From the IMG/VR virus record IMGVR_UViG_3300040801_002079, positions 95,837-159,836 of that record: a stretch of 64,000 nucleotides of DNA. The stretch is one strand, 5' to 3'. Position 1 is the stretch's first letter. Every line of letters begins with the position of its first letter. The notes beneath the pieces were generated by a model, which saw nothing but the letters and a program-made list of their open reading frames with translations, was not told where the DNA came from and did not search any database. A program made the position numbers and the translations under genes. Of this stretch, positions 3,573 through 35,133 are shown one piece after another. This DNA is from a virus.

Positions 3573-3602
3573 GTTACCACTTTAACACTTAGAGTACTAA
3601 AA

Positions 3603-5261: not shown

Positions 5262-5269
5262 ATACATGT

Positions 5270-5891: not shown

Positions 5892-5893
5892 AC

Positions 5894-6259: not shown

Positions 6260-6472
6260 CCTGCCTTCACGCCCCTTCTCCATATCACACATAGGACATT
6301 CGGTGTTTACATCATCAGTTTGGAACACAGACTTGCCTACACCATTACCAGCAGAGAAAATGTTTAATCTTCCTGCCTTGATACCACCATCACATTTTTC
6401 ATCGTCAATAATCTTTACGATAACGGGAACTCCGGGTTCTAGCATTCTTAATCTAAACATCTTCTTCCTCAT
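6248..6472 (-). CDS. hypothetical Cys-rich protein
   Basis: Track minus ORF preferred over the low-complexity plus ORF 6237..6476; contains CDGG...CPMCD. Confidence 0.35.
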   Translation of the reverse strand: MRKKMFRLRMLEPGVPVIVKIIDDEKCDGGIKAGRLNIFSAGNGVGKSVFQTDDVNTECPMCDMEKGREGRLQR

Positions 6473-6478
6473 TTAATT

Positions 6479-6841
6479 TTACCAGTACGTATCCAGTTCT
6501 TTCTCAGTGAGAGTAATCTTCTTGGCGTTATCAAAGATACACAGAAATTTATTACCATCAACCTGAGTGTCACAACAGATCATTGTATAACCATTCGCTT
6601 CATAAACGTATTTGTTAAGAAACCGTTGACGGTAAATGGAGTTGCTGTAGTATTCGCCACCTGATGCATCACGAAGATGCTCCTCTTTTTCAGCAAATAA
6701 AACGTCATCATCCCCCTCTTGATAAACCCAATAATAATCACGGTTATCTTCTAGAGGAATAACCACCCAATTTTCCACGTAGCCAAAGGCATCATGGATT
6801 TTCTGTTTAATGCTGAAATAGTCATCAATCAGTTGTTTCAT
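6479..6841 (-). CDS. hypothetical protein
   Basis: ORF track, 120 aa. Confidence 0.55.
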   Translation of the reverse strand: MKQLIDDYFSIKQKIHDAFGYVENWVVIPLEDNRDYYWVYQEGDDDVLFAEKEEHLRDASGGEYYSNSIYRQRFLNKYVYEANGYTMICCDTQVDGNKFLCIFDNAKKITLTEKELDTYW

Positions 6842-6842
6842 T

Positions 6843-7023
6843 TTAACTCATTAGCTCCATGCAAAAGTAAGTAAAAGCCTTTTCTGCTTCCTCTTCAGTA
6901 TCGAATGCAAATATTTTTTTGATATCGTCACCGAATACAGTTATCTCATTATTGATAATACTAGCACGGTTAATGGCATCCTTTTTAATCACCCAATTCT
7001 TTAATCTTACAAAATCAGTCATT
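6843..7023 (-). CDS. hypothetical small protein (~59 aa)
   Basis: Minus ORF MTDFVRLKNW... fills the gap between 6841 and 7026; AGGA RBS. Confidence 0.3.
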
Positions 7024-7025
7024 GT

Positions 7026-7217
7026 TTATTTCCTCATCTTAAATACTTCAAATACGCCTTTCCATGCATCAAACCGCTTAATAATGTTTCCCAGCATTTC
7101 AAGTTCATAAGATGATGCATCATCTATAAATTCTCTAATTTCCTTACGATTCCATTCATCTATTGCTGCTTGCTGTTCACGTTCTACTGCGTCATAACAA
7201 TCGTCATAATGTCCCAT
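7026..7217 (-). CDS. hypothetical protein
   Basis: ORF track, 63 aa, tightly coupled to 7221..7538. Confidence 0.45.
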   Translation of the reverse strand: MGHYDDCYDAVEREQQAAIDEWNRKEIREFIDDASSYELEMLGNIIKRFDAWKGVFEVFKMRK

Positions 7218-7220
7218 GGT

Positions 7221-7538
7221 TTATTGCTCCATTTTCTCAAGGTGTTTTTCATACTCTTCTCTGTGTTCTGGATGTACTTCCAGATAACGCTCCATCAGTT
7301 CTCTTTGACGAATCCTGTCTTCCTCAACGTCCTTTCCTTTGATTCTTCCCCCACAAGAAGGACAGTACCTATAAGGGGATGATGGAAGGTTTTTCATGTA
7401 GCCACATTCTGCAAGCCAATGTTGATTGGGTATTAATTTGTATTCGCAAGTCCTATTGGCTTTGGTTTCAAGACGCTCAATTTCATTTGCGGCCCAATCG
7501 GGATCACGCTTGCATCTCATGAACAAGTAGTTAGTCAT
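7221..7538 (-). CDS. hypothetical Zn-ribbon protein (paralog of 12350..12580)
   Basis: CPSCGG...C motif; shares the CK(R)xPxWAAN motif with 12350..12580. Confidence 0.5.
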   Translation of the reverse strand: MTNYLFMRCKRDPDWAANEIERLETKANRTCEYKLIPNQHWLAECGYMKNLPSSPYRYCPSCGGRIKGKDVEEDRIRQRELMERYLEVHPEHREEYEKHLEKMEQ

Positions 7539-7645
7539 TAATGTCTCCTTGTGAAAGTATTATAACCCAATTGCGTTCTACATGCAACCTCATTCTATTC
7601 ATTACCGCTTGGTAATAAATATTATTATTCAATGGGAGAAGTATA

Positions 7646-7882
7646 ATGAAAGAACTTATTTTTGGAACAGTAACGGTGCATACTCGTGATCCCGGCTTTC
7701 AATATGTGTTGGAAACGGAAGATGGCGAATACAAAGAACTTTTGTTTTTTGATCATGGTGGTATGAGTGTGGTTGACATGCCATACAATAGACCCATCGG
7801 TGTCTATGTCAGAAAATATGATGAAGAAAAATATGAAGTCGCAGAAGAACTAGAACAATGGTGGGTGGAAGATCATGGATAA
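7646..7882 (+). CDS. hypothetical protein
   Basis: ORF track, 78 aa. Confidence 0.5.
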   Translation: MKELIFGTVTVHTRDPGFQYVLETEDGEYKELLFFDHGGMSVVDMPYNRPIGVYVRKYDEEKYEVAEELEQWWVEDHG

Positions 7883-9536
7883 GAAAAAATTACATATCGG
7901 TGTTTATAGAAAATTAGGTACCAGTGCGACTGATGATGAACTAGAAGATGCTGTTGGATTTATTTCAAAATACTCGCTGGAACTCCAGCGGTTTTATCGT
8001 TTCTATGCAGAAAATATCTTTGATGTAAAAACGAAGCCGTTTGCCTATAAATCTAATACGAATACTTCCCCTACTGCTGGTTATGGTGGAAGAGATCGAA
8101 GAGAAGTTGATAAGGGAGACTTCGAAGAAACTCACGCCGCTGTTTATGGTGGAGCACCCCCAGACGGTAGACACATTTGTGGACAAGGTGGTTTGGGTGG
8201 TACTTCTTCGGTTACTTACGAAGGCTGTTTGCCAAGAACAATGATCCATGAAGTTGGACATAATCTGACTCTTCATCACGCAAATGATGGATTCCCCGAC
8301 AAGTTGGAAAGTTACGAATACAAAGATGAAACTTCTGTCATGGGTTCAAATGGCAACAACCCCGGTTTGAATGCCCCCGATATGATCTTTTTGGGCGTAA
8401 CAACAGATCGTGAAATTCGAAACGTAACCCAGACTGAGCAAGTGATTCTTCGTCCTACTGAACTTCCTGAAAGTGGATTGAAGAATGGTGAATACAAGTA
8501 TGCTGTAATTGAAAAGGGTGAGAACAAATATGTTGTATCGATCCGAAAGAAGAAGGGTATTCATTGGCACGTAGGTCGTGCGGGTGGACATGATCACATG
8601 AAAAACAATTATGTTTATGTTCATCGTATGGAGCCGATGGACCATAAACGATCCGCTTTGATCAACCCCATGATTCAAGCGGGAGAGCAAATGGATTTGT
8701 TGGGGGATATTCGCGTTGAAGCAGTTGAGTATCAAGATGAAGCAGCAAGAGTCAATATCTATTATAATCTTGATGACGAAACCCCCTCCGATTTAATAAT
8801 TGATCAATCCCTTCCCAAAAGAGAGAATACGCTAGAACTGAATGAAGCATTCAACGGCATTTGGTATAATTCCAATATGGTCGGGCAAGGCATTGATTTA
8901 CATATAAAAAATGATCGTCAAGTAATGTATTGGTATACATTTGGCATGGATAGTAATATGCCACCCACCTTTATCTATTCAGATGAAGAAGGTAATCTGT
9001 ATCGAACCGAATTTGGTTATTTTGATGATCCTACAGTAGCGCGAAATATTCATATCGGAACCTATTCAATCGAAGCGCTTGCTCCAAATCGAATCGTCTT
9101 TGATTATGACACGACTGATTATGGGCGCGGTTCAATTATGATGAAGCCAATTCTTACGAATCAAGATGAAAGATCAGGCATTTTATACCCAGAAGGTAAA
9201 GAGAAATCAGGGTTTTCTGTTCAATTTCATAACGACACCTGTGTTATGTACTGGTATACCTATGGACAATCACGGACTAATTTTATGGGTGGGCAAATTC
9301 GCAACAATCAGCAATGGTTCTTATGTCAAGGTGAAAGAAAGGAAGATGGGACATATGATTTAACGATTTATAATTCACCAGAAAATGTTCTGTTTTGTGA
9401 GCGTGTATATGAAAATGAATTAAGTGATCTGGAAGTTCTTGGTACAGCAAACTACAATCCAGAAACAAATGAATTTACATATAATTTAGAAAGATACAAT
9501 AAGGCTGGCTCATACAATTTAGTGCGTTTACTATAG
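7875..9536 (+). CDS. putative zinc metalloprotease (metzincin-like HEVGHNLTLHH motif)
   Basis: HExxH with a third His at +6; Cys/Gly-rich region upstream; 553 aa. Confidence 0.5.
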   Translation: MDKKKLHIGVYRKLGTSATDDELEDAVGFISKYSLELQRFYRFYAENIFDVKTKPFAYKSNTNTSPTAGYGGRDRREVDKGDFEETHAAVYGGAPPDGRHICGQGGLGGTSSVTYEGCLPRTMIHEVGHNLTLHHANDGFPDKLESYEYKDETSVMGSNGNNPGLNAPDMIFLGVTTDREIRNVTQTEQVILRPTELPESGLKNGEYKYAVIEKGENKYVVSIRKKKGIHWHVGRAGGHDHMKNNYVYVHRMEPMDHKRSALINPMIQAGEQMDLLGDIRVEAVEYQDEAARVNIYYNLDDETPSDLIIDQSLPKRENTLELNEAFNGIWYNSNMVGQGIDLHIKNDRQVMYWYTFGMDSNMPPTFIYSDEEGNLYRTEFGYFDDPTVARNIHIGTYSIEALAPNRIVFDYDTTDYGRGSIMMKPILTNQDERSGILYPEGKEKSGFSVQFHNDTCVMYWYTYGQSRTNFMGGQIRNNQQWFLCQGERKEDGTYDLTIYNSPENVLFCERVYENELSDLEVLGTANYNPETNEFTYNLERYNKAGSYNLVRLL

Positions 9537-9539
9537 CTA

Positions 9540-9568
9540 TTGTTTAAAAATACAATTCATGATATAAT
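9540..9568 (+). promoter_or_regulatory. sigma70-type promoter (TTGTTT-N17-TATAAT) placing the TSS at the ATG of 9575
   Basis: Read directly; 6 nt between -10 and ATG. Confidence 0.5.
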
Positions 9569-9574
9569 GTTTCC

Positions 9575-9937
9575 ATGAAGCATGAAGATGAACGAAGCAT
9601 TAATGGCTGGACTCCTACCACTCGCCCATGGATTGTGTGTGCTGCAAATCGATATGGCGATACAATCATCACTGGTGCACGACATCATGACAACATCATG
9701 AGAGCAGCGGTGGCAGCAATTGGTGGGTCATTTGATGCACAGGATCATGATGCATGGAAACGAGGTCATAGTGTATTGATGAGTCGTGTTCCGGAAGGTG
9801 GGCGTGAGGAGCAGGGGTTCATTGATCAATTTGGTCGGTTCTATGATCGGGAAGAAGCCATGCAACTGGCTCTTCAAAATGATCAGGTTAATAACCATAA
9901 GGGCGAACGTTTTTTATGCAGTGAACACTTGTATTGA
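9575..9937 (+). CDS. hypothetical protein
   Basis: ORF track, 120 aa. Confidence 0.5.
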   Translation: MKHEDERSINGWTPTTRPWIVCAANRYGDTIITGARHHDNIMRAAVAAIGGSFDAQDHDAWKRGHSVLMSRVPEGGREEQGFIDQFGRFYDREEAMQLALQNDQVNNHKGERFLCSEHLY

Positions 9938-9964
9938 TTAACAATGATGTGGTAGACTACGACA

Positions 9965-10231
9965 ATGAAAAAACTTATTATATTATTGACACTTTTAGTG
10001 CTTACAGGTTGTAAAATGGATTTAGAAGTTGAAGACCCCGCCATCGTGAAGTGTACAGATTTTCGTGATAACGAGGTTTGGCATTTTGATAATCGAACAG
10101 CCCGTGATGGAGTAATGCATATGAGCGGTGAGGCGACATATATCGTTACTGATACCAATGGAAATAAAAGAGAAATGCGTCACCCCCTTCCTGATTACCT
10201 TAAATGTGATATTCACGAGGAACTAAAGTGA
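9965..10231 (+). CDS. lipoprotein
   Basis: Signal peptide plus lipobox LTGC. Confidence 0.55.
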   Translation: MKKLIILLTLLVLTGCKMDLEVEDPAIVKCTDFRDNEVWHFDNRTARDGVMHMSGEATYIVTDTNGNKREMRHPLPDYLKCDIHEELK

Positions 10232-10680
10232 TTACTTTAAATTCAAAAAACATTTTTGTCGATTTTGCACTACGAAACAGCATAACAGATAATTGGAAGC
10301 AGCCCCGAGACATCTGCTCCTTATTTAATAAGTTTGTAAAATCCTTTTTTGCTTGTTGTTTTGCCTATGGATTACTGATAATGTCAGTAGTATCTGCTTT
10401 ATTTGTATTATTGGTGGGCACCCATATGTATTTTACAACTGACAGTCTTAATGTTTTACAAGATATTCAACGTGGGGTATACAACATGTTTACCATGTTT
10501 ATGCTATGGGGAATAGGGTCATTATTTTTTATCTTTGCAATTGGTTTGATGATGGCTTATTCGGCAATAGAAGACTTATATAGAGCCACTTTTCGCCCTA
10601 AAAACAAATCGAATAACATGTTTAAAGAATGGGTTAAAGCAAAGCGAGATAAATTATGCCCACTTGTAGAATACAAATAG
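10228..10680 (+). CDS. multi-pass membrane protein (paralog of 11354..11791)
   Basis: Several TM helices; shared C-terminal W(K)xKRxxxC motif. Confidence 0.55.
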   Translation: MITLNSKNIFVDFALRNSITDNWKQPRDICSLFNKFVKSFFACCFAYGLLIMSVVSALFVLLVGTHMYFTTDSLNVLQDIQRGVYNMFTMFMLWGIGSLFFIFAIGLMMAYSAIEDLYRATFRPKNKSNNMFKEWVKAKRDKLCPLVEYK

Positions 10681-10696
10681 GATATTAAAAGAGAAA

Positions 10697-10963
10697 ATGA
10701 CCATCGATAAAGAAAAAGAAGACGAGATAACTGTAAAATGTAATCTCTTTGTTCCCTTAATTTTTGGCCTTATGCAAAAATGGGACGATCTATACTCAAT
10801 TGATCCGAAAATAATAGCCGAGGAACTTCAATTAACGGTGACCGAAGTGCATTATCTATTATCAAATCAGATAAGTCAATTCTCTTTGCAACAGATAATC
10901 GCAATTGGAGAAATTGCTGGAATTTGGGATTCACAGGTGCCTCCCCCACTTGAAAATGATTAG
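10697..10963 (+). CDS. hypothetical protein, possible HTH
   Basis: ORF track, 88 aa; IAEELQLTVTEVHYLL helix-turn-helix-like. Confidence 0.45.
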   Translation: MTIDKEKEDEITVKCNLFVPLIFGLMQKWDDLYSIDPKIIAEELQLTVTEVHYLLSNQISQFSLQQIIAIGEIAGIWDSQVPPPLEND

Positions 10964-10996
10964 ATGCGTTTTAACGTAAAATTAGAGGAGTAAATT

Positions 10997-11224
10997 ATGC
11001 ACGAAGATTTGGGTTATAGTTCCACAAAATTACATTTTCCCTTTTGGGTGAAATTTATCATAGCGTTTATCGGTCTTGCCTTGTTTTACATTGCTGGAAT
11101 TTATTTAATAAAGGGTTTTATATTTTTAGTAATGACCTATCCGACACCTTCACTGATTGTAATAATGGGTTCACTTATTTCACTTCTTGCTGGTTTGATA
11201 GCATCCTTATGGCACTATAGTTAG
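10997..11224 (+). CDS. small membrane protein
   Basis: ORF track, 75 aa, two TM helices. Confidence 0.5.
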   Translation: MHEDLGYSSTKLHFPFWVKFIIAFIGLALFYIAGIYLIKGFIFLVMTYPTPSLIVIMGSLISLLAGLIASLWHYS

Positions 11225-11233
11225 GAGATTAAA

Positions 11234-11350
11234 ATGGAAATTATTGGATTTGATGCCTTCGCCTTTATTTTTTTCGGCATTGTGTTGGCCTTCGGTTGGT
11301 ACATGTTGTTTCATAATGCACCTTTTACCATTCAATTTATCACGGAGTGA
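11234..11350 (+). CDS. small membrane protein (38 aa)
   Basis: AGGAG RBS, hydrophobic; under track cutoff. Confidence 0.35.
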   Translation: MEIIGFDAFAFIFFGIVLAFGWYMLFHNAPFTIQFITE

Positions 11351-11353
11351 CTT

Positions 11354-11791
11354 ATGAAAGAACTTAGTGCTTCAAACTCAATTATTGCAGATTTCTTATT
11401 GAATGGGACGTTTAGTGTTACAAGGGGACGGACAGACATTTGTGAGTTAATGGTTGATTTCATTGCCCAGTTTGTGTTTACTTCATTTATGTTTTTATCC
11501 CTCATTGTTATCACATGGACATCCCTGTTTTCTTCTGTAATGGTGCTTGATTTTTTTGTTGGGCCTCAGTATTTTACGGATTTCTATTTGTATGTGAGGG
11601 AATTTAATACGCCATCTGCACTTTTTTGGATTACATCATTGATGGGGGGTCTGATGACTACACCCATTGTAATTATTGGACTGCTTATTACATTTATCAA
11701 GAAGCACCGATCTGATAGTGAATCTTTTATCGGAAATTGGTGGAAATCAAAGCGTCAGAGGATGTGCTTCGATATTAAAGTTGTGCCATAA
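11354..11791 (+). CDS. multi-pass membrane protein (paralog of 10228..10680)
   Basis: ORF track, 145 aa. Confidence 0.55.
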   Translation: MKELSASNSIIADFLLNGTFSVTRGRTDICELMVDFIAQFVFTSFMFLSLIVITWTSLFSSVMVLDFFVGPQYFTDFYLYVREFNTPSALFWITSLMGGLMTTPIVIIGLLITFIKKHRSDSESFIGNWWKSKRQRMCFDIKVVP

Positions 11792-11811
11792 ATATTAGAG
11801 AGACTAGAATT

Positions 11812-12114
11812 ATGAGAGAACCAACTCATTATCTATGTGATAATCACCCCTTGCATGATTTCTATGCCAAAGAGGATCATCCGCGTAAGGAAGTAGATGG
11901 TGAAATGGTAGTACAGTGCCCTTATTGTATGGCTGTTACCATTCGATATCTCAACGAGAAAATGGTATTGTTTAAAAAATACATTAATCATGTGGGTGAG
12001 TGTGAAGGTATAGATTTTACGGGAAATTCATTAACCTGTTCAGATAAATTTACGGATGAAGAAAAGAAAGATTTACGTATTATAGCTAAAGCCGCTTGGG
12101 AGGAAAGTCAATGA
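11812..12114 (+). CDS. Cys-rich hypothetical protein
   Basis: ORF track, 100 aa, CPYC...C...C. Confidence 0.5.
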   Translation: MREPTHYLCDNHPLHDFYAKEDHPRKEVDGEMVVQCPYCMAVTIRYLNEKMVLFKKYINHVGECEGIDFTGNSLTCSDKFTDEEKKDLRIIAKAAWEESQ

Positions 12115-12341
12115 AACCTATCGTTATTATATTCTTAATTGTACTAGCAGCATTTATATTCATGGTCAAGAAGGATGTTAAAACATATCACATCACTTGT
12201 CAGATCGATGGACTTTCTTTGTATGATGGAATTGGAACACAACTTGAGTACCCTGACAGTGGGGAAAATCAGCTAATCTTTGTTGATGAAAATGGAGATG
12301 AGGTTGCCATTTCAAACAAGGCAACCTGTCAAATTAAATAG
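12111..12341 (+). CDS. secreted/membrane small protein
   Basis: ATGA overlap with GGGAGG RBS; N-terminal signal/TM; track 12096..12341. Confidence 0.45.
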   Translation: MKPIVIIFLIVLAAFIFMVKKDVKTYHITCQIDGLSLYDGIGTQLEYPDSGENQLIFVDENGDEVAISNKATCQIK

Positions 12342-12349
12342 TTATTTTT

Positions 12350-12580
12350 CTATTCACCTAATGCGTCAATGGCGTTTTTGCAGTCAATGCTCAAACGCCC
12401 CTTTTCCCAGCATTCTTCGAACTCTGCTTGCGCATAACGAATCTTTTCTTTCAGTTCTCTTAATTCCTTGCGCTCTACCTGCAAACGGTTAGCTGCCCAT
12501 TCGGGGGATTTCTTGCACAACTTCAGTAGAGTCATAAATTCTTCGTGTCGTGGATCAAAACCACCTTCTATAATTACCAT
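12350..12580 (-). CDS. hypothetical protein (paralog of 7221..7538)
   Basis: ORF track, 76 aa; CKKSPEWAAN motif. Confidence 0.45.
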   Translation of the reverse strand: MVIIEGGFDPRHEEFMTLLKLCKKSPEWAANRLQVERKELRELKEKIRYAQAEFEECWEKGRLSIDCKNAIDALGE

Positions 12581-12692
12581 GTTTAATTTCCTTTATTTAA
12601 AAAGATTTCATGATCAGTATCATACCACATCATTTGCTTCATATCAACCATTGTGTTATAATTCACCCCGTTAATTTTAGCAGGAGAAGAAA

Positions 12693-12968
12693 ATGTTTAA
12701 GGCCAGAAAATGTGTCGTAAAAAATGTTAACGCAATTTGCAAACCTAATAATAGCCGCAGGATGGATTGGCGTAAATATGCCTTTTTGTATATTGTAAGT
12801 AAGGCTGAATTGGAAAACTGTGATTATAGCAATGCGTGTGGTATGCATGATAATGATGGTATCCATCTATGGTGGGACAATCGTGATGCACTTGTCAGGT
12901 TTGCATGGAAGTATAAAGATGAGCCTGACCTCAAGTGGAAAATTTATAAAGAGTTTGTTACAGAATAA
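12693..12968 (+). CDS. hypothetical protein
   Basis: ORF track, 91 aa; AGGAG RBS; extended -10 (TGtTATAAT) upstream. Confidence 0.5.
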   Translation: MFKARKCVVKNVNAICKPNNSRRMDWRKYAFLYIVSKAELENCDYSNACGMHDNDGIHLWWDNRDALVRFAWKYKDEPDLKWKIYKEFVTE

Positions 12969-12988
12969 ATATAAAAAAGGAGTTTAAA

Positions 12989-13411
12989 ATGAAACTTGAT
13001 CAAATTTTAAATGAAAGATGGTATGAAGATGAATGGGAAGATGAAGATGGTGATTATGGATGGTTGCCCATTTCATCTAGAGAAAATGGATTCTGGTTCG
13101 AAAATTTTGACAGTGTTGATAAACATAATAGTTGGTTTGATGGCATCGGAAAAGATTTATATGAACTAGGCAGTGAAAAGTTCAATAAGAAATTTGACGA
13201 TCTTCGTTGGGAAGAATACTACTTCCCCCCAGATTGGCAAGAGGTTGTTTCTAGAATGCCCGATCCGAGGAAATTCGGAATTGATCCCACACGACCCGAT
13301 AATACAGATATTAATGCTGGTAAACAATTTTTGGATGCATTTACTGACTGGTTTGAATCGGAAGAGTTAAACGATAACATTAAGCTTGAGGGCGATTTAA
13401 GGAGTTTATAA
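12989..13411 (+). CDS. hypothetical protein (tandem paralog A)
   Basis: Starts MKLDQILNE; 5' region duplicated at 13411. Confidence 0.55.
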   Translation: MKLDQILNERWYEDEWEDEDGDYGWLPISSRENGFWFENFDSVDKHNSWFDGIGKDLYELGSEKFNKKFDDLRWEEYYFPPDWQEVVSRMPDPRKFGIDPTRPDNTDINAGKQFLDAFTDWFESEELNDNIKLEGDLRSL

Positions 13412-13746
13412 TGAAACTTGATCAAGTATTAAATGAATGGAATGACTGGGATGACTTGAGTGGTCATCATCGTGCGGGAGCGTCAGAAGCAGATCGTGAA
13501 GAAATAATTAATGACATTTATCAGTATCTCAATCAGCCCCATATGAAACGTCACATGGAAAAACATTGTCCCCGACTATTAGCATCCAATAGTTTAGATG
13601 CAATTGCGGATCAAGTCGCATTTACTCCCATTGATGGAAAGAATGTGATTGATTGGATTGATGGAGATGAATATTACACAGATGATGACTTTGAAGATCA
13701 AGTAGAAGATGCACTTCAAAAACTAGAAGAACCCCTCTGGCACTAA
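13411..13746 (+). CDS. hypothetical protein (tandem paralog B)
   Basis: Starts MKLDQVLNE; identical RBS context AAGGAGTTTA(a/t)AATG. Confidence 0.55.
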   Translation: MKLDQVLNEWNDWDDLSGHHRAGASEADREEIINDIYQYLNQPHMKRHMEKHCPRLLASNSLDAIADQVAFTPIDGKNVIDWIDGDEYYTDDDFEDQVEDALQKLEEPLWH

Positions 13747-13778
13747 CACTCTTCCATTACTGGTAATTAATATAAAAA

Positions 13779-14087
13779 TCAATAACTTGTATATTCCTCA
13801 ATTACTCCGTTCAGGTCATCAGCCCAGACATGCTTTACTCCGGGAGGTGCCATTGGTGTTTGTTGTGCATTTTCCAAAAGTGCTCCCAGATCATTAAGTA
13901 GGTTGTTTGTAAAAGCGAACTCTGTTGAGTATCCCTCCATAAACTCTATAATCATGGGACGAAGATTATCACTCATGTCCTCATTGATTATCGCTTCAAC
14001 CAAATCATTATATCTTTCACCCGTCATTCTTTTCATATTAATATCTCCTATTTCCTTCAGTGTAATATTGTATTTGCTTACTGTCAA
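13779..14087 (-). CDS. hypothetical protein
   Basis: Track minus ORF, 102 aa, convergent with flanking plus genes. Confidence 0.4.
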   Translation of the reverse strand: MTVSKYNITLKEIGDINMKRMTGERYNDLVEAIINEDMSDNLRPMIIEFMEGYSTEFAFTNNLLNDLGALLENAQQTPMAPPGVKHVWADDLNGVIEEYTSY

Positions 14088-19377: not shown

Positions 19378-19406
19378 TTGACACCTGATACGTCATACCG
19401 TATAAT
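19378..19406 (+). promoter_or_regulatory. sigma70-type promoter (TTGACA-N17-TATAAT) placing the TSS at ATG 19413
   Basis: Perfect consensus; 6 nt from -10 to ATG. Confidence 0.6.
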
Positions 19407-19412
19407 GGCGGT

Positions 19413-20219
19413 ATGACTACACATAGAGAACAATTTTTAAATCAATGCGCCTGTATTGATTTTGAAACAACGAGCTTAGAACCCGAAGAAGCTGAAATCA
19501 TTGAGCAAGGCATAAGTGTATACGAAGATGGGAACTGGACTGTGGCAACTTCTATGTTGCACGACTGTAAAGCTCCAGATGTTCCAGCCGAAGCATCCGC
19601 TGTAAACAACATTACGAAGCCAATGCTAAAAGGTTACGGCCCATTCAGTCTTGATAATTTCGGATTATTATCTATAAAGCCTCATAGGAATATATTAATT
19701 TCACATAATGTCAAATATGACAGCATGGTATTAAAGAACTATGTTGATCCCGAGACATTTGAAGCACTTTCTTCTAATTGGCTATGCAGCTATCGTATGG
19801 CTAAAAAGTTATATGTTAATCGTCCCGAGTATAAATCATTAAGCCTTGCCTATCTACGGTACAGGCGCAAGCTATGTGAATTTGTTAAAATTCCAACCGA
19901 GCCTCACAGAGCGGGATATGATTCGTACATCAATGGCCTTCTTTTGGAGGACATTATCGACATATTAGAAGAGGCTAATATATTGGATAAGGATAAACCA
20001 TACTTTGGACAACTAAAAGATTGGCTGAAGCCACCTATAATGTTGGAATACATGCCCGGATTTGGTAAACATGCTGGGGAACGGTTGGACGAACTTGATT
20101 TCGGCTATTTGAAATGGGTGTTCGAAAATACCGACAGATGTGATGAGGATAGTCCCGAGTATGATATTGATCTGGCAACTACATTAGCTGGATATATGGC
20201 AAAAGCTTATAAGGGTTGA
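19413..20219 (+). CDS. DEDD-family 3'-5' exonuclease (DnaQ-like)
   Basis: Motifs DFETT, HNVKYD, HRAGYD. Confidence 0.6.
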   Translation: MTTHREQFLNQCACIDFETTSLEPEEAEIIEQGISVYEDGNWTVATSMLHDCKAPDVPAEASAVNNITKPMLKGYGPFSLDNFGLLSIKPHRNILISHNVKYDSMVLKNYVDPETFEALSSNWLCSYRMAKKLYVNRPEYKSLSLAYLRYRRKLCEFVKIPTEPHRAGYDSYINGLLLEDIIDILEEANILDKDKPYFGQLKDWLKPPIMLEYMPGFGKHAGERLDELDFGYLKWVFENTDRCDEDSPEYDIDLATTLAGYMAKAYKG

Positions 20220-23284: not shown

Positions 23285-23596
23285 ATGCAAGGATTTATAA
23301 CAGGAACCATACTTGGCGTAGCCGGGGGCATCATAGGATCATATCTATTTTTTAAATTCGTAATTGCTCCCAAACTTCTCAACATTCAAATAGCTTATAA
23401 TAATTTAAGAGTAGCTTCTACCGCACTTTTTAAAGACAGTTCAGTTTTACTGGCGTTTCAAAATGTATTTGCACAGAGATTAATTGACGTTGAGGAAAAG
23501 CTGGACATAGAAAGCTTAACACCCGAAGATTACAAAGCCATTCAATATGATGTTATCGCATCTATTGAATCTTATGCAAAAGAACCGGACTTTTAA
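23285..23596 (+). CDS. membrane protein
   Basis: ORF track, 103 aa. Confidence 0.5.
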   Translation: MQGFITGTILGVAGGIIGSYLFFKFVIAPKLLNIQIAYNNLRVASTALFKDSSVLLAFQNVFAQRLIDVEEKLDIESLTPEDYKAIQYDVIASIESYAKEPDF

Positions 23597-23607
23597 TAAA
23601 TAATATT

Positions 23608-23838
23608 ATGAAACTACACGAAGTATGCAAAGATGCATTGGATAAACCAACACCGACTCTTGATGATTTGGTAAAAAAGTATGACCTTTCAAAAGAGGAA
23701 CTTCAATCTCAGCTTGACATGGGCATTGAAGTAGAATTTGAGCACACATCGGATAAAAAGGTAGCTAAGGAGATTGCATTAGATCATCTAGCCGAAGACC
23801 CAAAATATTACGATAAACTCAAAAAAGTTGAAGAATAG
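23608..23838 (+). CDS. hypothetical protein
   Basis: ORF track, 76 aa. Confidence 0.5.
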   Translation: MKLHEVCKDALDKPTPTLDDLVKKYDLSKEELQSQLDMGIEVEFEHTSDKKVAKEIALDHLAEDPKYYDKLKKVEE

Positions 23839-23839: not shown

Positions 23840-23868
23840 TTGCATCTCACCTCCTAATATTGTATAAT
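23840..23868 (+). promoter_or_regulatory. sigma70-type promoter (TTGCAT-N17-TATAAT)
   Basis: Read directly; gene 23880 follows 11 nt after the -10. Confidence 0.5.
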
Positions 23869-23879
23869 TAGTCCAAATA

Positions 23880-24062
23880 ATGTTGATACTGTCTATAGTT
23901 CTAGCATTACTAAGCTGTTCAGTAACAACGTATGTACTTTTTAAAGATCGCTCATCCTTTGTGAGCAGAGAATCAAGTACAACCAATAAAGTCCTTATAA
24001 TTTTAAGTGTAACGCTCATAATTATAACATTATTGGTCTACCTTTTGGAGAAATTTGGATGA
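23880..24062 (+). CDS. small membrane protein
   Basis: ORF track, 60 aa. Confidence 0.45.
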   Translation: MLILSIVLALLSCSVTTYVLFKDRSSFVSRESSTTNKVLIILSVTLIIITLLVYLLEKFG

Positions 24063-24982: not shown

Positions 24983-25206
24983 AAAATCTAATGAATTTCA
25001 TCGATGATTATATTCTAACATCGTGGCATTTCTTTGTAGCAGTCTCGCTGGGTACAATTTTCGGCTTAGAAAACGTAATACCCATATATTCTCTTATCTG
25101 GCTTATGTTATTCGGGGCAGCATCTTTTCTATTTTTATTCAAGTATCGTAAAATGTATAAATACTCACATGAAACTCAAAGACATCAAAAAGCCAGAAAA
25201 GCGTAA
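24979..25206 (+). CDS. small membrane protein
   Basis: ORF track, 75 aa. Confidence 0.5.
   Translation: MKNLMNFIDDYILTSWHFFVAVSLGTIFGLENVIPIYSLIWLMLFGAASFLFLFKYRKMYKYSHETQRHQKARKA
25156..25163 (+). promoter_or_regulatory. T4-late-type TATAAATA box 5 nt upstream of ATG 25169
   Basis: Exact 8-mer read directly. Confidence 0.4.
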
Positions 25207-25633
25207 CCCCGTAGCTAAAAATATGGGCATTAATAAAGCTTCTACTCATAAAGATAAGAAGAAAGCCCAAAGAACTCCTCGTAAGAACCAAAAGCATAAA
25301 GGTAAAATGTTTGAATCCTTTATAGTTCTTTGTGAGGAAGCTAAGGTTTGGACAAAAGATGAAATCAAAGAAAAGCTTAAAACAGATGACCGATGGCTTA
25401 TTCGTGCACTATTAGCAATCTACAACAAGCAAACAGAGGATGAGCAGGCAAATGACATGACTGCACATTATAATAATGTTGGATTTAACGGTCTAGATGC
25501 TGAATGGCTTTCAAAGATGGCTAGGTTTTACAAAGATCGTGGGTTCCTATCGCCTAAGCAATTAATGCACGTTCGTAAAAAAATGCTAAAATATTCAGGC
25601 CAACTGGCTAAGATCGCAAATAAAAAGATTTGA
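25169..25633 (+). CDS. basic hypothetical protein
   Basis: ORF track, 154 aa, Lys-rich N-terminus. Confidence 0.5.
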   Translation: MKLKDIKKPEKRNPVAKNMGINKASTHKDKKKAQRTPRKNQKHKGKMFESFIVLCEEAKVWTKDEIKEKLKTDDRWLIRALLAIYNKQTEDEQANDMTAHYNNVGFNGLDAEWLSKMARFYKDRGFLSPKQLMHVRKKMLKYSGQLAKIANKKI

Positions 25634-25658
25634 TTTCCTAAGATTATCGTAGTATAAT
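25630..25658 (+). promoter_or_regulatory. sigma70-type promoter (TTGATT-N17-TATAAT) placing the TSS at ATG 25665
   Basis: 6 nt from -10 to ATG. Confidence 0.5.
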
Positions 25659-25664
25659 TGTGCC

Positions 25665-26456
25665 ATGAATAAATGGCATGATGACATAACCCCCTCCGAC
25701 CTAACATTCACAGGTATGAATACGACTGAATTTGCTCGTAGCTCCCTGCTTACCCGACTGTTAAGCGATCTATCAAATCGTAAAATATCACTTGGTGTAT
25801 CGCATGGGACAGTGGTTGATACCTTTTCTGTATTGACTCAAAATGAAGATGTGCCAAACATTATAGAACATTTAATGGTTGATATGCTTGCCACTTTAAT
25901 TTGTGAAAATCCCAAATTTATAGAGGATTATATTGAAGCAAATATCGGCAGAAAATTGCAGAAGGCGGCGTTAGAAGAAATTGCAGGGAAGTTTGAGATA
26001 GATGATCTGAAAAAAGAACCCCCTTTTCCCTTTAATTCACCATGGTCCAATGAGCTTAATAAATTAAAAAATGAACAATTTAATTTTTGGTGGGATTATG
26101 AAGATGATGAGGTTGTCATATTTGCGGAATATGCGGGCATAGATGGTGAAATATGTCGAATATTTTTCGAGGATGAATATGAACAACAGGATGCTGAGAA
26201 TGAAGCTGAACGCATCATACAGAAATTATATAATGATGAAGTAAACATCGGAGATTTCATTAAGTCCGATCAATCTTTAATATTAGTCGATGATTTGCCA
26301 GAATATATTAAGAGTTGGATTAATCGCTCTAGTACGATGTTTTCATCAGGATCAGATGATTATTTGGTGTGGGATTCTACTAATGCATCATCTTATTCTA
26401 AATTAACTGCCGTTACTACCTCAGCAACAGGATATACTAAATGGTGGAACCCATGA
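25665..26456 (+). CDS. hypothetical protein
   Basis: ORF track, 263 aa. Confidence 0.55.
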   Translation: MNKWHDDITPSDLTFTGMNTTEFARSSLLTRLLSDLSNRKISLGVSHGTVVDTFSVLTQNEDVPNIIEHLMVDMLATLICENPKFIEDYIEANIGRKLQKAALEEIAGKFEIDDLKKEPPFPFNSPWSNELNKLKNEQFNFWWDYEDDEVVIFAEYAGIDGEICRIFFEDEYEQQDAENEAERIIQKLYNDEVNIGDFIKSDQSLILVDDLPEYIKSWINRSSTMFSSGSDDYLVWDSTNASSYSKLTAVTTSATGYTKWWNP

Positions 26457-26590: not shown

Positions 26591-26830
26591 ATGTACATGA
26601 AAGAAGTTTTTAGAGTGTTCGATATTGTCATTGAAGACTGTCCCGCCCATCTGAGCCTGACTCAAGCTGTGTGGGCTGCGCATAATCACCTTCAGACAAT
26701 AGATGGTGCATCGGTTGAGTGGTCTCCTTCTACCCCATCTACAATACGTTTACGATTTGAGGAACATGTTAGTGCCCACAATGTGATGCTTGATATTATA
26801 GATGAACTATCATCAATGGGTTATAAATAG
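26591..26830 (+). CDS. hypothetical protein
   Basis: ORF track, 79 aa. Confidence 0.5.
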   Translation: MYMKEVFRVFDIVIEDCPAHLSLTQAVWAAHNHLQTIDGASVEWSPSTPSTIRLRFEEHVSAHNVMLDIIDELSSMGYK

Positions 26831-27059
26831 TTGTATGATTGATTTTGATTTCAAATTCAGATGGTTCAGGCTACTATATGTTGGCGTTATTTCGGCAACC
26901 ATATTTTTCTTTTATGGGTGGATTCCAGCCGCGTTATGTATGCTTACCGTTATAGATATTAATTTTGATGAAGACCTATTTAAAGTTGAATCTTCCGATG
27001 AAGATGATTTAGTCGATTTATTAAATGAAGATGATCGGGGATACGGACCCAACTCGTAA
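26802..27059 (+). CDS. membrane protein
   Basis: ORF track, 85 aa. Confidence 0.45.
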   Translation: MNYHQWVINSCMIDFDFKFRWFRLLYVGVISATIFFFYGWIPAALCMLTVIDINFDEDLFKVESSDEDDLVDLLNEDDRGYGPNS

Positions 27060-27280
27060 TGGTTTTTACTCAACTGCTCTTACTTTCCGTTCTTATAATG
27101 TTAGTAGGAGCACTAGCCCCATTAGGACTTTTTCATTTATTACCAGCCGCTTTTAGTAATATCTTAGGTTTTGTAGGAATAATGACCATATCCATTGGAC
27201 TTATAGTTTATGGTGTGTTATTATATGCTTCAACATTGCAGATTTTATTTAAGAGATTAGGTTGGATAAAAAATGGATAA
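27059..27280 (+). CDS. small membrane protein
   Basis: ORF track, 73 aa. Confidence 0.5.
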   Translation: MVFTQLLLLSVLIMLVGALAPLGLFHLLPAAFSNILGFVGIMTISIGLIVYGVLLYASTLQILFKRLGWIKNG

Positions 27281-28001
27281 AACAAATTTAGGTGACCGCA
27301 TGAAAGGCTATGAGGTTGTACCACGAGTGCAACTGATGCGCCGTACACCTGTTATTATGCGATTAGATGGAAAGGCGTTTCATACTTATACTCGTCATGA
27401 ACTGTATAATGATGAAGGAGCGTTCAGTAATCGCTTAAAGGAAATCTTTGCTAACTCCGTGTTCAGCCTGATTCAAGAAATTCAGGGTGCCGCGTTTGCA
27501 TATTTGCAATCAGATGAAGTTTCCATCTTAATTACTGATTGGAAAAAGTTAACGACCCACGCATGGTTTAATTATAACACTCAAAAAATCACAAGTGTTG
27601 CGGCATCAATGTTCACATACTTCTTCAACGAAGAGGCTCGAATGAGAGGCATTGAGTCTCCAGCATTTTTTGATGCAAGAGCGTTCAATCTGCCTTTTGA
27701 AGAAGTTACAAATTATTTCATCTGGCGACAACAGGATGCAACCAGAAATAGCATTCAGATGCTGGGAAGGGAATACTTTTCCCACAAGGAATTAAATGGT
27801 AAAAATGTGTCTAATATTCAGGACATGTTAATGAATGTGCATGGAGTAAACTGGAATGATATTCCGACTTGGCACAAGCGAGGGTTTGCTATTAAGTCAT
27901 TTTTACATGAAGATCGTAGAACTTTTGGAATCGATCCCGAAATTCCAGTGTTTACAAAGAATAGAGGGTATATAGAAAAACATCTTGTATTTGAAGATTA
28001 G
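27273..28001 (+). CDS. Thg1-like protein (tRNA-His guanylyltransferase family 3'-5' nucleotidyltransferase)
   Basis: IMRLDGKAFHTYT, AYLQSDEVSIL, NYFIWRQQDATRN match Thg1/TLP conserved blocks. Confidence 0.65.
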   Translation: MDKTNLGDRMKGYEVVPRVQLMRRTPVIMRLDGKAFHTYTRHELYNDEGAFSNRLKEIFANSVFSLIQEIQGAAFAYLQSDEVSILITDWKKLTTHAWFNYNTQKITSVAASMFTYFFNEEARMRGIESPAFFDARAFNLPFEEVTNYFIWRQQDATRNSIQMLGREYFSHKELNGKNVSNIQDMLMNVHGVNWNDIPTWHKRGFAIKSFLHEDRRTFGIDPEIPVFTKNRGYIEKHLVFED

Positions 28002-28894: not shown

Positions 28895-29104
28895 CTATGA
28901 ATTGAAATCTTTGACCTTATTGGCTTCAAGTATTTCAAATAACTCAAACACATTCAATGATACCAACGTGCTACCACCAACTCTTTTTACTAAAAAGAAG
29001 GGTACAGGTTTAGCGTCAAACAGCATGTATATGTTTGCAGAAGTCCCATCTAAAAGTGGGAATGATTTGCCAACCAAATCATTTAGATTAATATACTCAT
29101 CCAT
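28895..29104 (-). CDS. hypothetical protein
   Basis: Track minus ORF, 69 aa, preferred over the low-complexity plus ORF 28902..29159. Confidence 0.4.
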   Translation of the reverse strand: MDEYINLNDLVGKSFPLLDGTSANIYMLFDAKPVPFFLVKRVGGSTLVSLNVFELFEILEANKVKDFNS

Positions 29105-29106
29105 TA

Positions 29107-29135
29107 TTGTATTTAGTGTTATTTTGAGGTATAAT
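29107..29135 (+). promoter_or_regulatory. sigma70-type promoter (TTGTAT-N17-TATAAT)
   Basis: -10 overlaps the first ATG (29134), so translation likely starts at ATG 29143 (7 nt after the -10). Confidence 0.5.
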
Positions 29136-29142
29136 GTTTCAT

Positions 29143-29646
29143 ATGAACATTTTAAGTGAAAAATGGTGCGTTAGATTTTTACATCTGGCGAGAACTGTAT
29201 CTAGATGGTCTAAGGACCCCTCAACTCAGGTTGGGGCGGTTATTACATCTATGGAAGGTGATCCTATATCTTTTGGATATAATGGATTCCCAAAGGGTGT
29301 GAGAGAATCTGATGAACGCCTAGAGCGTCCACAAAAATATGATTTCTCTGAACATGCCGAAAGGAATGCAATATACCTTTCACGGAGAGACTTACGGGAT
29401 ATGGTCATGTATGTGACCTGTTTGCCATGCTGCGACTGTGCCAGAGCTATTATACAATCAGGAATAAACATTCTAGTAGTAGATGGTGAGTATCAAAAGA
29501 CGATAAGGGCTGGAAGCTCTATTTTAACGCCAGATTTTAAACGTCAAAAGGAAAATTCAAGAATCATGCTGGAAGAAGCAGGGGTTCAGATTATAGAAAA
29601 GTTTACAGCTAATGATATTACTAAATGGGAGAATATAAATGGCTAA
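29143..29646 (+). CDS. dCMP deaminase
   Basis: HAERNAI ... TCLPCCDCARAI (zinc-binding deaminase motifs). Confidence 0.65.
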   Translation: MNILSEKWCVRFLHLARTVSRWSKDPSTQVGAVITSMEGDPISFGYNGFPKGVRESDERLERPQKYDFSEHAERNAIYLSRRDLRDMVMYVTCLPCCDCARAIIQSGINILVVDGEYQKTIRAGSSILTPDFKRQKENSRIMLEEAGVQIIEKFTANDITKWENING

Positions 29647-30160: not shown

Positions 30161-30536
30161 TCAAACATCTTATAACAAAGCATTTAATCTGCGAATCAAT
30201 GAATGTTTGCAGAGTGTGGCACACTCATATGGGAATATTTTAGATATTCCCCGCAAAGCCGATATTATTTTTAATTATGAATTTATTAAAAAGGATTGGC
30301 TGGCAGCAGCGAGTGTTGACCCAAATGCTAAAGTTACTCAAAGCATCATATCCTTCAACCCTCTATATGTAGAAGAGTATTTTGATGAATTTATAGAAGA
30401 TATTATTCCCCATGAGTTATCACACATTATTTGTTTTTTAAATAGATTAGATGATGGGCATGGGAAAAACTGGAAAACATTGTGTCGTGAAATGGGCGGC
30501 ACCGGGGAAGAATTTCATAGGATCAGATACGCATGA
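30150..30536 (+). CDS. SprT-like zinc metalloprotease domain protein (putative)
   Basis: IPHELSHIICF ... HGKNW; start chosen at ATG 30150 within track ORF 30057..30536. Confidence 0.4.
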   Translation: MVLNQTSYNKAFNLRINECLQSVAHSYGNILDIPRKADIIFNYEFIKKDWLAAASVDPNAKVTQSIISFNPLYVEEYFDEFIEDIIPHELSHIICFLNRLDDGHGKNWKTLCREMGGTGEEFHRIRYA

Positions 30537-31270
30537 TTTATGCTATTGGTGACATTCATGGAACATATGTAAAACTGATACGCCTGTATCAGAAGATTAT
30601 GCTTCATATGAAATACAACGGGGTGAAACGAGCCACGATCATCTTTTTGGGTGATTATGTTGATCGCGGTCCACACCCACATAAAGTATTTGATTTCCTT
30701 ATGAATTTGAAAGATACTGATGAAATTAAGCACATCTTTTTAAAGGGAAATCACGAGGATATGATGATTCATGCTTATGATGGAGCAGACTATAAAGTAT
30801 GGGTTGCTAATGGTGGGAGAGATACATTAAATGCTTTTGACATTGGCTATCCTGAAGACTTTGTTGGCAATGAAGAAGTAAAGCCCTATATTGATTGGTG
30901 CCGACAACTTGATGTTATGCATGTTGTGGGTAAATATATTTTTGTTCATGGCGGATATGACCCAAAGCGTCCACCAAACGATCAAAAAGATGAAGTTTTA
31001 ATGTGGAAAAGAAGCACTCCTTACATGGATGGGAGAGAGTATGAAACGTGCGATTACACTATAGTGCATGGACATACTCCACATAAGGAACCCAAGATGT
31101 ATAAAAATGAAATCAATGTTGATACATTTGCATATTATGATGGGCCTCTTACAGCAGTTGCTATACCGGAAGATATTACCCAGTATAATGCTGATGACAT
31201 TTATGGTATGACAGATGATTGTTTCAATAAGGTAACCAATAATACTATTGAGTTCTTGACGGCTCAATAG
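30533..31270 (+). CDS. Ser/Thr protein phosphatase (metallophosphoesterase, lambda-PPase-like)
   Basis: GDIHG, GDYVDRG, GNHE motifs. Confidence 0.65.
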   Translation: MIYAIGDIHGTYVKLIRLYQKIMLHMKYNGVKRATIIFLGDYVDRGPHPHKVFDFLMNLKDTDEIKHIFLKGNHEDMMIHAYDGADYKVWVANGGRDTLNAFDIGYPEDFVGNEEVKPYIDWCRQLDVMHVVGKYIFVHGGYDPKRPPNDQKDEVLMWKRSTPYMDGREYETCDYTIVHGHTPHKEPKMYKNEINVDTFAYYDGPLTAVAIPEDITQYNADDIYGMTDDCFNKVTNNTIEFLTAQ

Positions 31271-32707: not shown

Positions 32708-32741
32708 AAAGAACCCTCGCTTATGCGGGGGTTTCTTTTTG
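32708..32741 (+). terminator. rho-independent terminator
   Basis: GAACCCTCGC-TTAT-GCGGGGGTTTC followed by TTTTT. Confidence 0.6.
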
Positions 32742-32750: not shown

Positions 32751-33533
32751 ATGAAATGGGTAATACAGGATAATTTATACAATGAAGATGGGTACGTTAG
32801 ATTTATTGAAGCATTGGACAATCAAAAACAGGATTACGAGGTTGTAAAGGTTGTCCCATTCGCTCATGAATTAATTCCAGATATAGACTTAAACTATAGG
32901 CCCATCTTGGTCATGGGGTCAGACTCTCTTATTGCTGCTGCACAGAAGAAGAACTGGTACCCCGGTGCTTTCACCAATCCCGTTACATTCCACCAGAGTA
33001 TGTGGAACAGAAAACTTGGGATTAACATGCTCAATTATGATGCGCAGATTGTAAAGTTCGGGGATGTTCGTGCCCCTAATGATAGCGAAGAGTTTTTTAT
33101 TAGACCAGCATTGGATTTTAAAATTTTTGCTGGAACGGTAATAGATGCTGATAGTTTTGAAAAATGGCAAGAAAAGGCTGTTGCCTATGGGGACACATTA
33201 AATGCGGATACAGAAGTCGTAATCGCTTCACCGAAAGTAATTTATGAGGAATATAGATTCTTTGTTGTGAATTTCAAAATTGTTACTGCATCCCGTTATA
33301 AGATAGGCAATAGAGTTAAACCGGACACCGAGGTTCCATCAGAGGCGGTTCAGTTTGTTACCGATATGACTAACTATTGGAACCCAGATATTGCATACGT
33401 CATTGATGTTGCCAAGACTCCAAAGGGGTTTAAAGTGATTGAATATAACTGCATTAATGCGTCAGGATTTTATGCATGTGACTGTGAAAAAATTGTTTCT
33501 GCATTGTACGAGCAAGTTCGCTGGTTGAAATAA
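32751..33533 (+). CDS. ATP-grasp-like domain protein (putative)
   Basis: Blocks FFIRPALDFKIF, EEYRFFVV, VIEYNCINASG resemble the ATP-grasp fold; ATG within track ORF 32739..33533. Confidence 0.4.
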   Translation: MKWVIQDNLYNEDGYVRFIEALDNQKQDYEVVKVVPFAHELIPDIDLNYRPILVMGSDSLIAAAQKKNWYPGAFTNPVTFHQSMWNRKLGINMLNYDAQIVKFGDVRAPNDSEEFFIRPALDFKIFAGTVIDADSFEKWQEKAVAYGDTLNADTEVVIASPKVIYEEYRFFVVNFKIVTASRYKIGNRVKPDTEVPSEAVQFVTDMTNYWNPDIAYVIDVAKTPKGFKVIEYNCINASGFYACDCEKIVSALYEQVRWLK

Positions 33534-33541
33534 ATACTGGT

Positions 33542-35121: not shown

Positions 35122-35127
35122 TATAAT
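35099..35127 (+). promoter_or_regulatory. sigma70-type promoter (TTGTAA-N17-TATAAT) 6 nt upstream of ATG 35134
   Basis: Read directly. Confidence 0.45.
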
Positions 35128-35133
35128 CACATC

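Follow-up and report, generated by a model that had tools for sequence, protein, structure and literature searches.

Leaderless mRNAs predicted from sigma70-type and T4-like late promoters placed on start codons in an uncultivated jumbo phage

Introduction

In phages of bacteria that use Shine-Dalgarno (SD) sequences, leaderless mRNAs are usually seen as rare oddities. Leaderless coliphage genes include lambda cI, transcribed from PRM, and P2 gene V; in both, a sigma70 promoter starts transcription on the A of the AUG and no SD sequence is present. Translation of such messages by direct binding of 70S ribosomes and initiator tRNA is an established mechanism, and leaderless middle and late transcripts are also made by phage P23-45. 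Here we analyse a 64-kb stretch of DNA from an uncultivated jumbo (giant) phage (IMG/VR record IMGVR_UViG_3300040801_002079, positions 95,837 to 159,836; hereafter the window), which makes up about 20% of a 316.8-kb contig and in which promoters of two types stand directly on start codons, so that their transcripts are predicted to be leaderless.

Among larger phages, leaderless middle and late transcripts were described for the Thermus phage phiYS40, where IF2 is raised and IF3 lowered during infection, favouring leaderless translation (PMC3594737). No leaderless transcripts were found in phiKZ by differential RNA sequencing of early infection (PMC8244752) or in AR9 (PMC5312081), and the passages on promoters, start sites and sigma factors in the PA5oct transcriptome study report sigma70-like promoters and contain nothing on leaders (PMC7318152). 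As to late transcription, ATAAATA was predicted as the late promoter of the Rak2-like jumbo phages CBB and GAP32, which encode a gp55-like sigma (PMC5259590). In T4, the genes e, soc, 49 and I-TevI are translated only from the transcript of their late promoter, as a hairpin hides the SD sequence in the longer transcript (PMC3014915).

Results

Two types of promoter stand exactly on start codons

An earlier note on this DNA had described five sites at which a sigma70-type promoter (TTGnnn-17-TATAAT) runs up to a start codon, together with a late-type box at 25156-25163 that does the same, and had proposed a deliberate class of leaderless transcripts. The sequence was as described at all of these coordinates. 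In the clearest case, the promoter at 19378-19406 matches the consensus at 12 of 12 positions, and the whole 36-nt gap between the upstream stop (19376) and ATG 19413 is occupied. An ORF-based (open reading frame) scan of the window found the five sigma70-type cases and up to ten late-type cases at exactly 5 nt (Table 1); the late example given in the note was thus real, but its class had been undercounted. About 11-15 of the roughly 113 genes have the leaderless design, and the others have leaders of about 17-35 nt with AGGAG-type sites.

The distances are those expected if transcription started on the start codon itself. With the -10 hexamer of a sigma70 promoter at -12 to -7, an ATG that follows after 6 nt has its A at +1. 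In T4 late promoters the box runs from -13, as seen from a variant described as "A(-13) in place of T" (PMC2988020); 8 bp counted from there end at -6, and an ATG that follows after 5 nt likewise has its A at +1. Two promoter types with separate canonical offsets therefore predict one and the same 5' end, which would be unexpected for a translational signal. We consider it likely that the leaderless mRNAs are real and arise from host-sigma70 and T4-like late promoters. As a prediction, the proposal of a deliberate class is well supported by the geometry, the statistics, the absence of SD sequences, the N-terminal homology and the conservation in orthologues described below.

To obtain chance expectations for fixed patterns, dinucleotide-preserving shuffles were used. 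The pattern TTG-N20-TATAAT-N6-ATG was observed four times in the window versus 0.05 expected, and TTG-N20-TATAAT 15 times versus 1.87, with 14 of the 15 on the + strand, home of most genes. This excess of paired -35 and -10 elements over chance, oriented along the genes, is what is expected of sigma70-type promoters, and the 17-bp spacing of the TTG is exact in all five leaderless -10 elements. For the late type, ATAAATA-N5-ATG occurred seven times versus 0.75 expected.

The late motif was further scanned by measuring how far every [AC]TAAATA stands from the first ATG of an ORF with 60 codons or more. Of the 50 motifs, 24 were followed within 40 nt by the first ATG of a long ORF, against about 4% expected (an estimate from the share of sequence positions this near a start); the box is thus enriched upstream of genes in the manner of T4-type late promoters. 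The gap between motif and start was bimodal. In 8-9 genes it was exactly 5 nt, without an SD sequence, and in 16 it was 17-37 nt (17-27 in all but two), usually with one; no gene had a gap of 0-4 or 6-16 nt. By this count, some 8-10 of the 24-26 genes proximal to a late motif are predicted to be leaderless, and the others have leaders of 17-37 nt, mostly with SD sequences.

The same strict rules were applied to 1.13 Mb of unrelated phage and metagenome contigs, originally fetched for other purposes. Cases starting a long ORF numbered zero for the early type and one for the late type in this background, and four and eight in the window. Part of the background came from exonuclease scans (two of IMG/VR, one of a metagenome), which had yielded only generic, distant DEDDh exonucleases at 25-40% identity with no usable synteny, and whose loci were reused solely as real sequence.

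Table 1. Promoter elements on or close to start codons in the window, with the genes they precede
Element, gap, start codon	Position	Strand	Gene or ORF	Remark
TTGACA-17-TATAAT, 6 nt, ATG	19378-19415	+	19413-20219, 268 aa, DnaQ/ExoX-like exonuclease (PF00929)	
TTGTTT-17-(TGa)TATAAT, 6 nt, ATG	9540-9577	+	9575-9937, 120 aa, no known family	
TTGATT-17-TATAAT, 6 nt, ATG	25630-25667	+	25665-26456, 263 aa, orphan	
TTGTAA-17-(TGa)TATAAT, 6 nt, ATG	35099-35136	+	35134-35592, 152 aa, DUF7919	
TTGTAT-17-TATAAT, 7 nt, ATG	29107-29145	+	29143-29646, 167 aa, dCMP deaminase	
TTGAAA-17-(TGa)TATAAT, 10 nt, ATG 40286	40247-40288	+	209 aa	near-leaderless; predicted leader 3-4 nt; no SD
TTGCAT-17-TATAAT, 11 nt, ATG 23880	23840-23882	+	60 aa	predicted leader 4-5 nt; no SD
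Late-type TATAAATA (25156-25163), 5 nt, ATG	25156-25171	+	25169-25633, 154 aa, DUF7230	firm
Late-type AATAAATA, 5 nt, ATG	23595-23610	+	23608-23838, 76 aa, DUF5661	firm
Late-type AATAAATA, 5 nt, ATG	33529-33544	+	33542-34036, 164 aa	firm
Late-type CATAAATA, 5 nt, ATG	51648-51663	+	51661-51981, 106 aa	firm
Late-type GATAAATA, 5 nt, ATG 40219	40217-40232	-	35597-40219, 1540 aa	firm
Variant late motif ACTAAATA, 5 nt, ATG	29102-29117	-	28895-29104, 69 aa	firm
AATAAATA, 5 nt, ATG	5257-5272	+	small ORF 5270-5461, 63 aa	weaker; gene status less certain
TATAAATA, 5 nt, ATG 26835	26822-26837	+	74 codons from ATG 26835	weaker; ATG internal to ORF 26802-27059
GCTAAATA, 5 nt, ATG 2540	2538-2553	-	ORF 2304-2540, 78 aa	weaker
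TATAAATA, 5 nt, GTG	50459-50474	+	ORF 50472-50723, 83 aa	weakest; non-AUG start

Some details of these sites deserve mention. The extended -10 element before gene 35134 (TGaTATAAT, 35119-35127) takes its TG from the TGA stop of gene 34717-35121. The 38-bp and 66-bp intergenic regions at 29105-29142 and 40220-40285 hold divergent back-to-back promoters; in both regions the minus-strand gene is of the late leaderless type, and the plus-strand gene has a sigma70-type promoter with no leader or a short one. The ORF 26802-27059, inside which ATG 26835 lies, has its own start without an SD sequence.

Candidate genes lack SD sequences and have well-placed starts

A match of at least 4 nt located 4-13 nt from the start codon was counted as an SD sequence. 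By this measure, in a simple gene model of about 113 genes, one is present in 1 of the 15 candidates versus 73 of the 98 other genes (Fisher's exact p = 6e-7), and the sole match among the candidates sits upstream of the predicted transcription start. In a conservative set of ten genes, whose starts were chosen without regard to the motif, none has an SD sequence (p = 5e-6). The earlier statement that the six sites first described have none holds: there was no match at a usable position.

ATG is the start codon in 14 of the 15 candidates, with a single GTG (50472). At each of the six sites first described, no start codon of the ORF precedes the ATG, except at 29143, which comes 3 codons after an in-frame ATG at 29134, inside the -10 element. 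It had been foreseen that the leaderless proposal would fail if the true starts were downstream Met codons with ribosome-binding sites (RBSs) of their own. No in-frame downstream start with an SD sequence was found at the six sites, gene 9575 included, which itself has no SD sequence. Likewise, the 1540-amino-acid gene on the minus strand (ATG 40219) has no SD sequence and no SD-led alternative start within its first 300 nt.

Comparison with homologues points to the same starts. For four of the leaderless-candidate genes homologues align from residues 1-2, which indicates that the start codons are right. PA5oct homologues of the exonuclease 19413 align from residue 1 and those of other jumbo phages from residues 3-6; four metagenomic homologues aligned with it all share R5, F8 and L9. 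The DUF7230 protein (25169) aligns with its orthologue in a metagenomic contig (L004) from residue 1, the DUF7919 Pfam profile aligns with the 35134 protein from residue 2, and the Pfam deaminase domain in the 29143 protein begins at residue 8. Over its C-terminal two thirds (25340-25633), the DUF7230 protein has 55-58% identity with proteins from two Xanthomonas jumbo phages, Xoo-sp13 and XacN1; the N-terminal DUF7230 part is common to the window protein and L004.

The arrangement is kept in metagenomic relatives

No close relative of the window was present among 50,697 phage records, and megablast gave no match; the matches given by blastn against the phage collection were all short, at about 70-79% identity, and fell in Vibrio, Yersinia and Staphylococcus phages. 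A protein identical to the exonuclease is recorded on a contig of 316,801 bp. Judged by this protein, PA5oct and Rak2-like jumbo phages are the nearest cultured relatives, with 36% and about 30-33% identity, respectively. Word-index searches with proteins 25665 and 35134 returned only each protein itself. When three leaderless-gene proteins were compared with cultured phages by tblastn, the matches were confined to domains and lay in unrelated contexts. Comparisons were made with the metagenomic contigs L003, L004, L005 (a 223-kb contig) and L105, and with the cultured phages PA5oct (L111, MK797984.1), Serratia phage BF (L116) and T4.

The exonuclease gene, preceded in the window by TTGACA-17-TATAAT-6-ATG, has TTGACA-18-TATAAT-7-ATG in L003 (67% protein identity) and TTGACA-17-TATAAT-7-ATG in L005 (43%). 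The spacer and discriminator bases of these three promoters are unrelated. In L004 (46%) the -10 element is weaker (TATCGT) and 10 nt from the ATG, again without an SD sequence. For the late type, three pairs of orthologues shared by the window and L004 (about 43-58% identity) all keep the 5-nt gap, with ATAAATA-N5-ATG in each L004 gene: the DUF5661 gene 23608 (at 5586 in L004), the DUF7230 gene 25169, and 29104 on the minus strand (variant ACTAAATA in the window), whose counterpart is at 757. Genes with leaders were conserved as well: a late box with 24-25 nt and GAGG precedes both the ArdC-like gene 18057 and its L003 counterpart at 300, and ACTAAATA with about 18 nt and GAGGT precedes both 21879 and L003 3733.

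We then looked at late boxes in cultured phages. In the first 150 kb of T4 none is closer than 12 nt to a start and 25 lie at 12-35 nt; 150 kb of PA5oct contain one case at 5 nt (EST35_0222); and 100 kb of BF contain none at 5 nt and two at 4 nt, both upstream of annotated starts. The metagenomic contigs L004 and L005 have three cases at 5 nt each, in only 6.5 kb and 20.8 kb, respectively. With the cultured controls nearly devoid of 5-nt cases, the leaderless placement marks the clade of the window and not T4-like late promoters in general.

The exceptions in the cultured phages are described here in their own right. EST35_0222 (L111 44985; MK797984.1 position 144985) has TATAAATA 5 nt before its annotated start and encodes a structural protein detected by mass spectrometry. 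In BF (L116 16687 and 39780, minus strand), ATAAATA stands 4 nt before an in-frame ATG at two genes, gp233 and gp242, in each case 8-9 codons ahead of the annotated start. The N-termini of the two proteins may be mis-annotated; alternatively, late transcripts with leaders may carry these AUGs at their 5' ends.

A working model for the leaderless class

In the model that we favour, host RNA polymerase with sigma70 would start on the A of the ATG at the TTGnnn-17-TATAAT promoters, presumably early in infection, and a gp55-like phage sigma would presumably do so at the late class ([T/A/C]ATAAATA or ACTAAATA). The mRNA of each unit would then have no leader and open with the AUG of its first gene, and 70S ribosomes with initiator tRNA would bind this AUG directly, with no SD pairing. 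An AUG without an SD sequence is poorly used inside a longer transcript, and the first genes would consequently be expressed mainly from their own promoters. Translation could in this way be tied to the time class of the promoter, despite early and late units being interleaved on one strand.

Such interleaving is seen on the + strand, where a late promoter at 18026 is followed by the early one of gene 19413, late 33530 by early 35099, and early 24368 by late 25157, early 25630 (gene 25665) and late 26823 in turn. Of the leaderless genes, just one (33542) has a predicted terminator-like hairpin directly before it, at 32711-32734. Leaderless genes in the window are mostly preceded by a promoter of the opposite class, and on such an order the leaderless design would, hypothetically, insulate the time classes from each other. 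The suggestion of the earlier note that the class serves particular infection-stage conditions stands in that its promoters fall into early and late classes, but the leaderless genes are split over both and do not belong to one stage.

More broadly, it is possible, although we regard it as doubtful, that an uncultivated jumbo clade, distantly akin to PA5oct and Rak2-like phages, uses the leaderless design as a general regulatory device, with the promoter on the start codon gating the first gene of each unit and insulating early genes from late read-through, and late genes from early read-through, in dense same-strand arrays with few terminators, and that the phage may also tune translation to 5'-terminal AUGs. 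The only leads for such tuning are loose ones. One is the gene for an ATP-grasp protein of the R2K clade (PF14243, PF18299; 32739-33533, +), directly upstream of the late leaderless gene 33542; the R2K clade includes RimK and CDC123-type enzymes, which modify translation components. The other is a ribosomal protein S21 gene in L005 (6857-7135), which lies, with genes for HSP20, ClpS, HSP70, ClpP and an AAA/MCM-type ATPase, in a region (5721-13887) around the leaderless exonuclease gene. The further idea of the earlier note, translation by specialised or stress-modified ribosomes, gained no support from the gene content: no initiation-factor or ribosomal-protein family was among the Pfam matches listed for 112 window proteins (the best 25 of 37 families).

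Alternative explanations

The most serious alternative accepts the promoters as real but has most of the protein translated from longer, read-through mRNAs in an SD-independent way, by S1 acting on A/U-rich sequence or by re-initiation after a stop 12-38 nt away, with the promoter serving the downstream genes. Indeed, four of the five early-type ATGs follow the end of a same-strand gene at a distance of 12-38 nt, with no intervening terminator, the sequence just 5' of the ATGs is A/T-rich, and the downstream genes of each unit have SD sites of their own. The exact gaps (5 nt for the late box, 6-7 nt for the -10 element), however, fit the transcription start rule of each class and no known translation rule; two of the cases lie in the divergent 38- and 66-bp intergenic regions, where there is no upstream same-strand gene; and the geometry is kept in orthologues although the neighbouring bases differ. 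We think this explanation unlikely.

Still less probable is a reading in which the motifs beside the ATGs resemble promoter elements only by accident and in fact act at the RNA level or in translation, for instance as A/U-rich enhancers or processing sites. TATAAT and ATAAATA are A/U-rich, and A/U-rich sequences can enhance SD-independent initiation. Yet a TTG stands exactly 17 bp upstream in all five TATAAT cases, one of them the full consensus; the -35 element of the exonuclease promoter is kept in two diverged orthologues; and the late motif, which matches the late promoters predicted in related phages, is also found in front of SD-led genes at a distance of 17-27 nt, too far away to act beside the ATG. 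As for chance co-occurrence, or mis-called starts with the true Met and its RBS downstream, the window is A/T-rich (about 38% GC, with 129 TATAAT counting both strands) and three small late ORFs are uncertain genes; nevertheless, chance is excluded by the shuffles and the 1.13-Mb background of real sequence, and mis-calling is contradicted by the N-terminal alignments and the absence of SD-led downstream starts, so that this explanation is close to refuted.

The leaderless reading, which remains our preferred one, has to be set against several points that count the other way. The 5' ends, the temporal classes and the mode of translation are all read from the sequence of an uncultivated phage, and real transcription starts can shift by 1-2 nt. 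The -35 elements are weak beyond TTG in four of the five sigma70-type sites. One late case starts with GTG (50472), and non-AUG starts work poorly on leaderless mRNA in E. coli; in three or four late cases the ORF is small, or its start was picked partly by the motif. A late sigma is annotated in the BF record, but no homologue of this protein or of T4 gp55, gp33 or gp45 was found in the window, which covers about 20% of the genome, and these proteins diverge fast. Weaker 5' RNA structure in the candidates was seen when 40 nt were considered (p = 0.006) and was not significant at 30 or 50 nt. Finally, the exonuclease orthologue in L105 (46% identity) has an ordinary SD-led leader, and those of PA5oct (36%) and fHe-Yen9-04 (33%) have ordinary leaders. 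Since the sigma70-type arrangement is kept in the window, L003 and L005 and is replaced by an ordinary one elsewhere, the design is conserved in the clade yet exchangeable, and not obligatory for the exonuclease gene.

Other features of the window

A promoter-plus-leader module occurs on the + strand in three near-identical copies (2747-2808, 3544-3605 and 12634-12695), consisting of TTGnnn-14-TGTTATAAT, a 30-nt leader and an ATG; the leader includes an SD sequence at 2806 and 12693, and the module forms a repeated early-promoter cassette.

A tRNA with a CUA anticodon (an amber suppressor, labelled Pyl by ARAGORN) is encoded at 45086-45163 (+). Recoding of TAG by this tRNA was considered and rejected, TAG being a normal stop in 22 of the 113 genes. 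Upstream of it, four same-frame ORFs (43878-45095) are split only by TAG, and these TAGs lie inside tAGGAG-type RBSs; the run of ORFs beside the tRNA is probably a coincidence.

The window also contains a pair of NAD-salvage genes (59480-62121, +), for a cytidyltransferase (NMN adenylyltransferase-type)/Nudix protein and a nicotinamide phosphoribosyltransferase, a pair also present in KVP40-type Vibrio phages. Genes at 27273-28001 and 30533-31270 (+) look like part of a tRNA or RNA repair set: they encode a Thg1-like tRNA-His guanylyltransferase and a metallophosphatase, and the window-wide Pfam survey of the proteins also matched an RNA ligase and an AAA_33 kinase.

Discussion

About one gene in eight of the window is predicted to be leaderless. 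If true, this would amount to a simple rule tying translation to the choice of promoter. It would also matter for the annotation of giant phages, as gene callers that demand an SD sequence would misplace or miss such starts, and it would offer compact 36-38 bp promoter-plus-start modules for synthetic biology. Leaderless phage genes are already known; what our analysis suggests as new is that T4-like late promoters fire on start codons, which, if confirmed, would be the first case found. Full-text literature searches linking "leaderless" with T4-type late promoters or with phage Cappable-seq returned nothing relevant.

In the placement of a sigma70 promoter on the AUG, with no SD sequence and a 5'-terminal AUG, the early-type genes resemble lambda cI and P2 gene V. 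Those are, however, single regulatory genes of small temperate phages, whereas here 11-15 genes of a virulent-type jumbo phage of about 317 kb are concerned, with two promoter classes and with enzymes and a 1540-amino-acid late protein among the products.

The likeness to phiYS40 lies in leaderless mRNAs in a large phage. PhiYS40 is lytic, a whole temporal class of its transcripts is leaderless, most of its middle and late transcripts are so, and its host phylum uses leaderless mRNA widely. In the window, in contrast, only about one third of the late-promoter-proximal genes and about one third of the TTG-N17-TATAAT promoters are leaderless, short of a majority; early and late classes are both involved, and strong SD sequences are the norm elsewhere.

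The late box itself is that of the T4 late promoters (TATAAATA, read with gp55, gp33 and gp45) and of the Rak2-like ATAAATA, including the A(-13) variant, with no evident -35 element, and as in those phages it also stands before many genes with leaders of about 17-27 nt. Its placement 5 nt from the start distinguishes the window from T4, with no late box within 12 nt of a start in 150 kb, and from BF, with none at 5 nt. In logic, the arrangement would resemble that of T4 e, soc, 49 and I-TevI, in which the read-through transcript is untranslatable and the own-promoter transcript is translated. Unlike the hairpin that gates those T4 genes, the gate proposed for the window phage would consist of the lack of an SD sequence together with the need for a 5'-terminal AUG.

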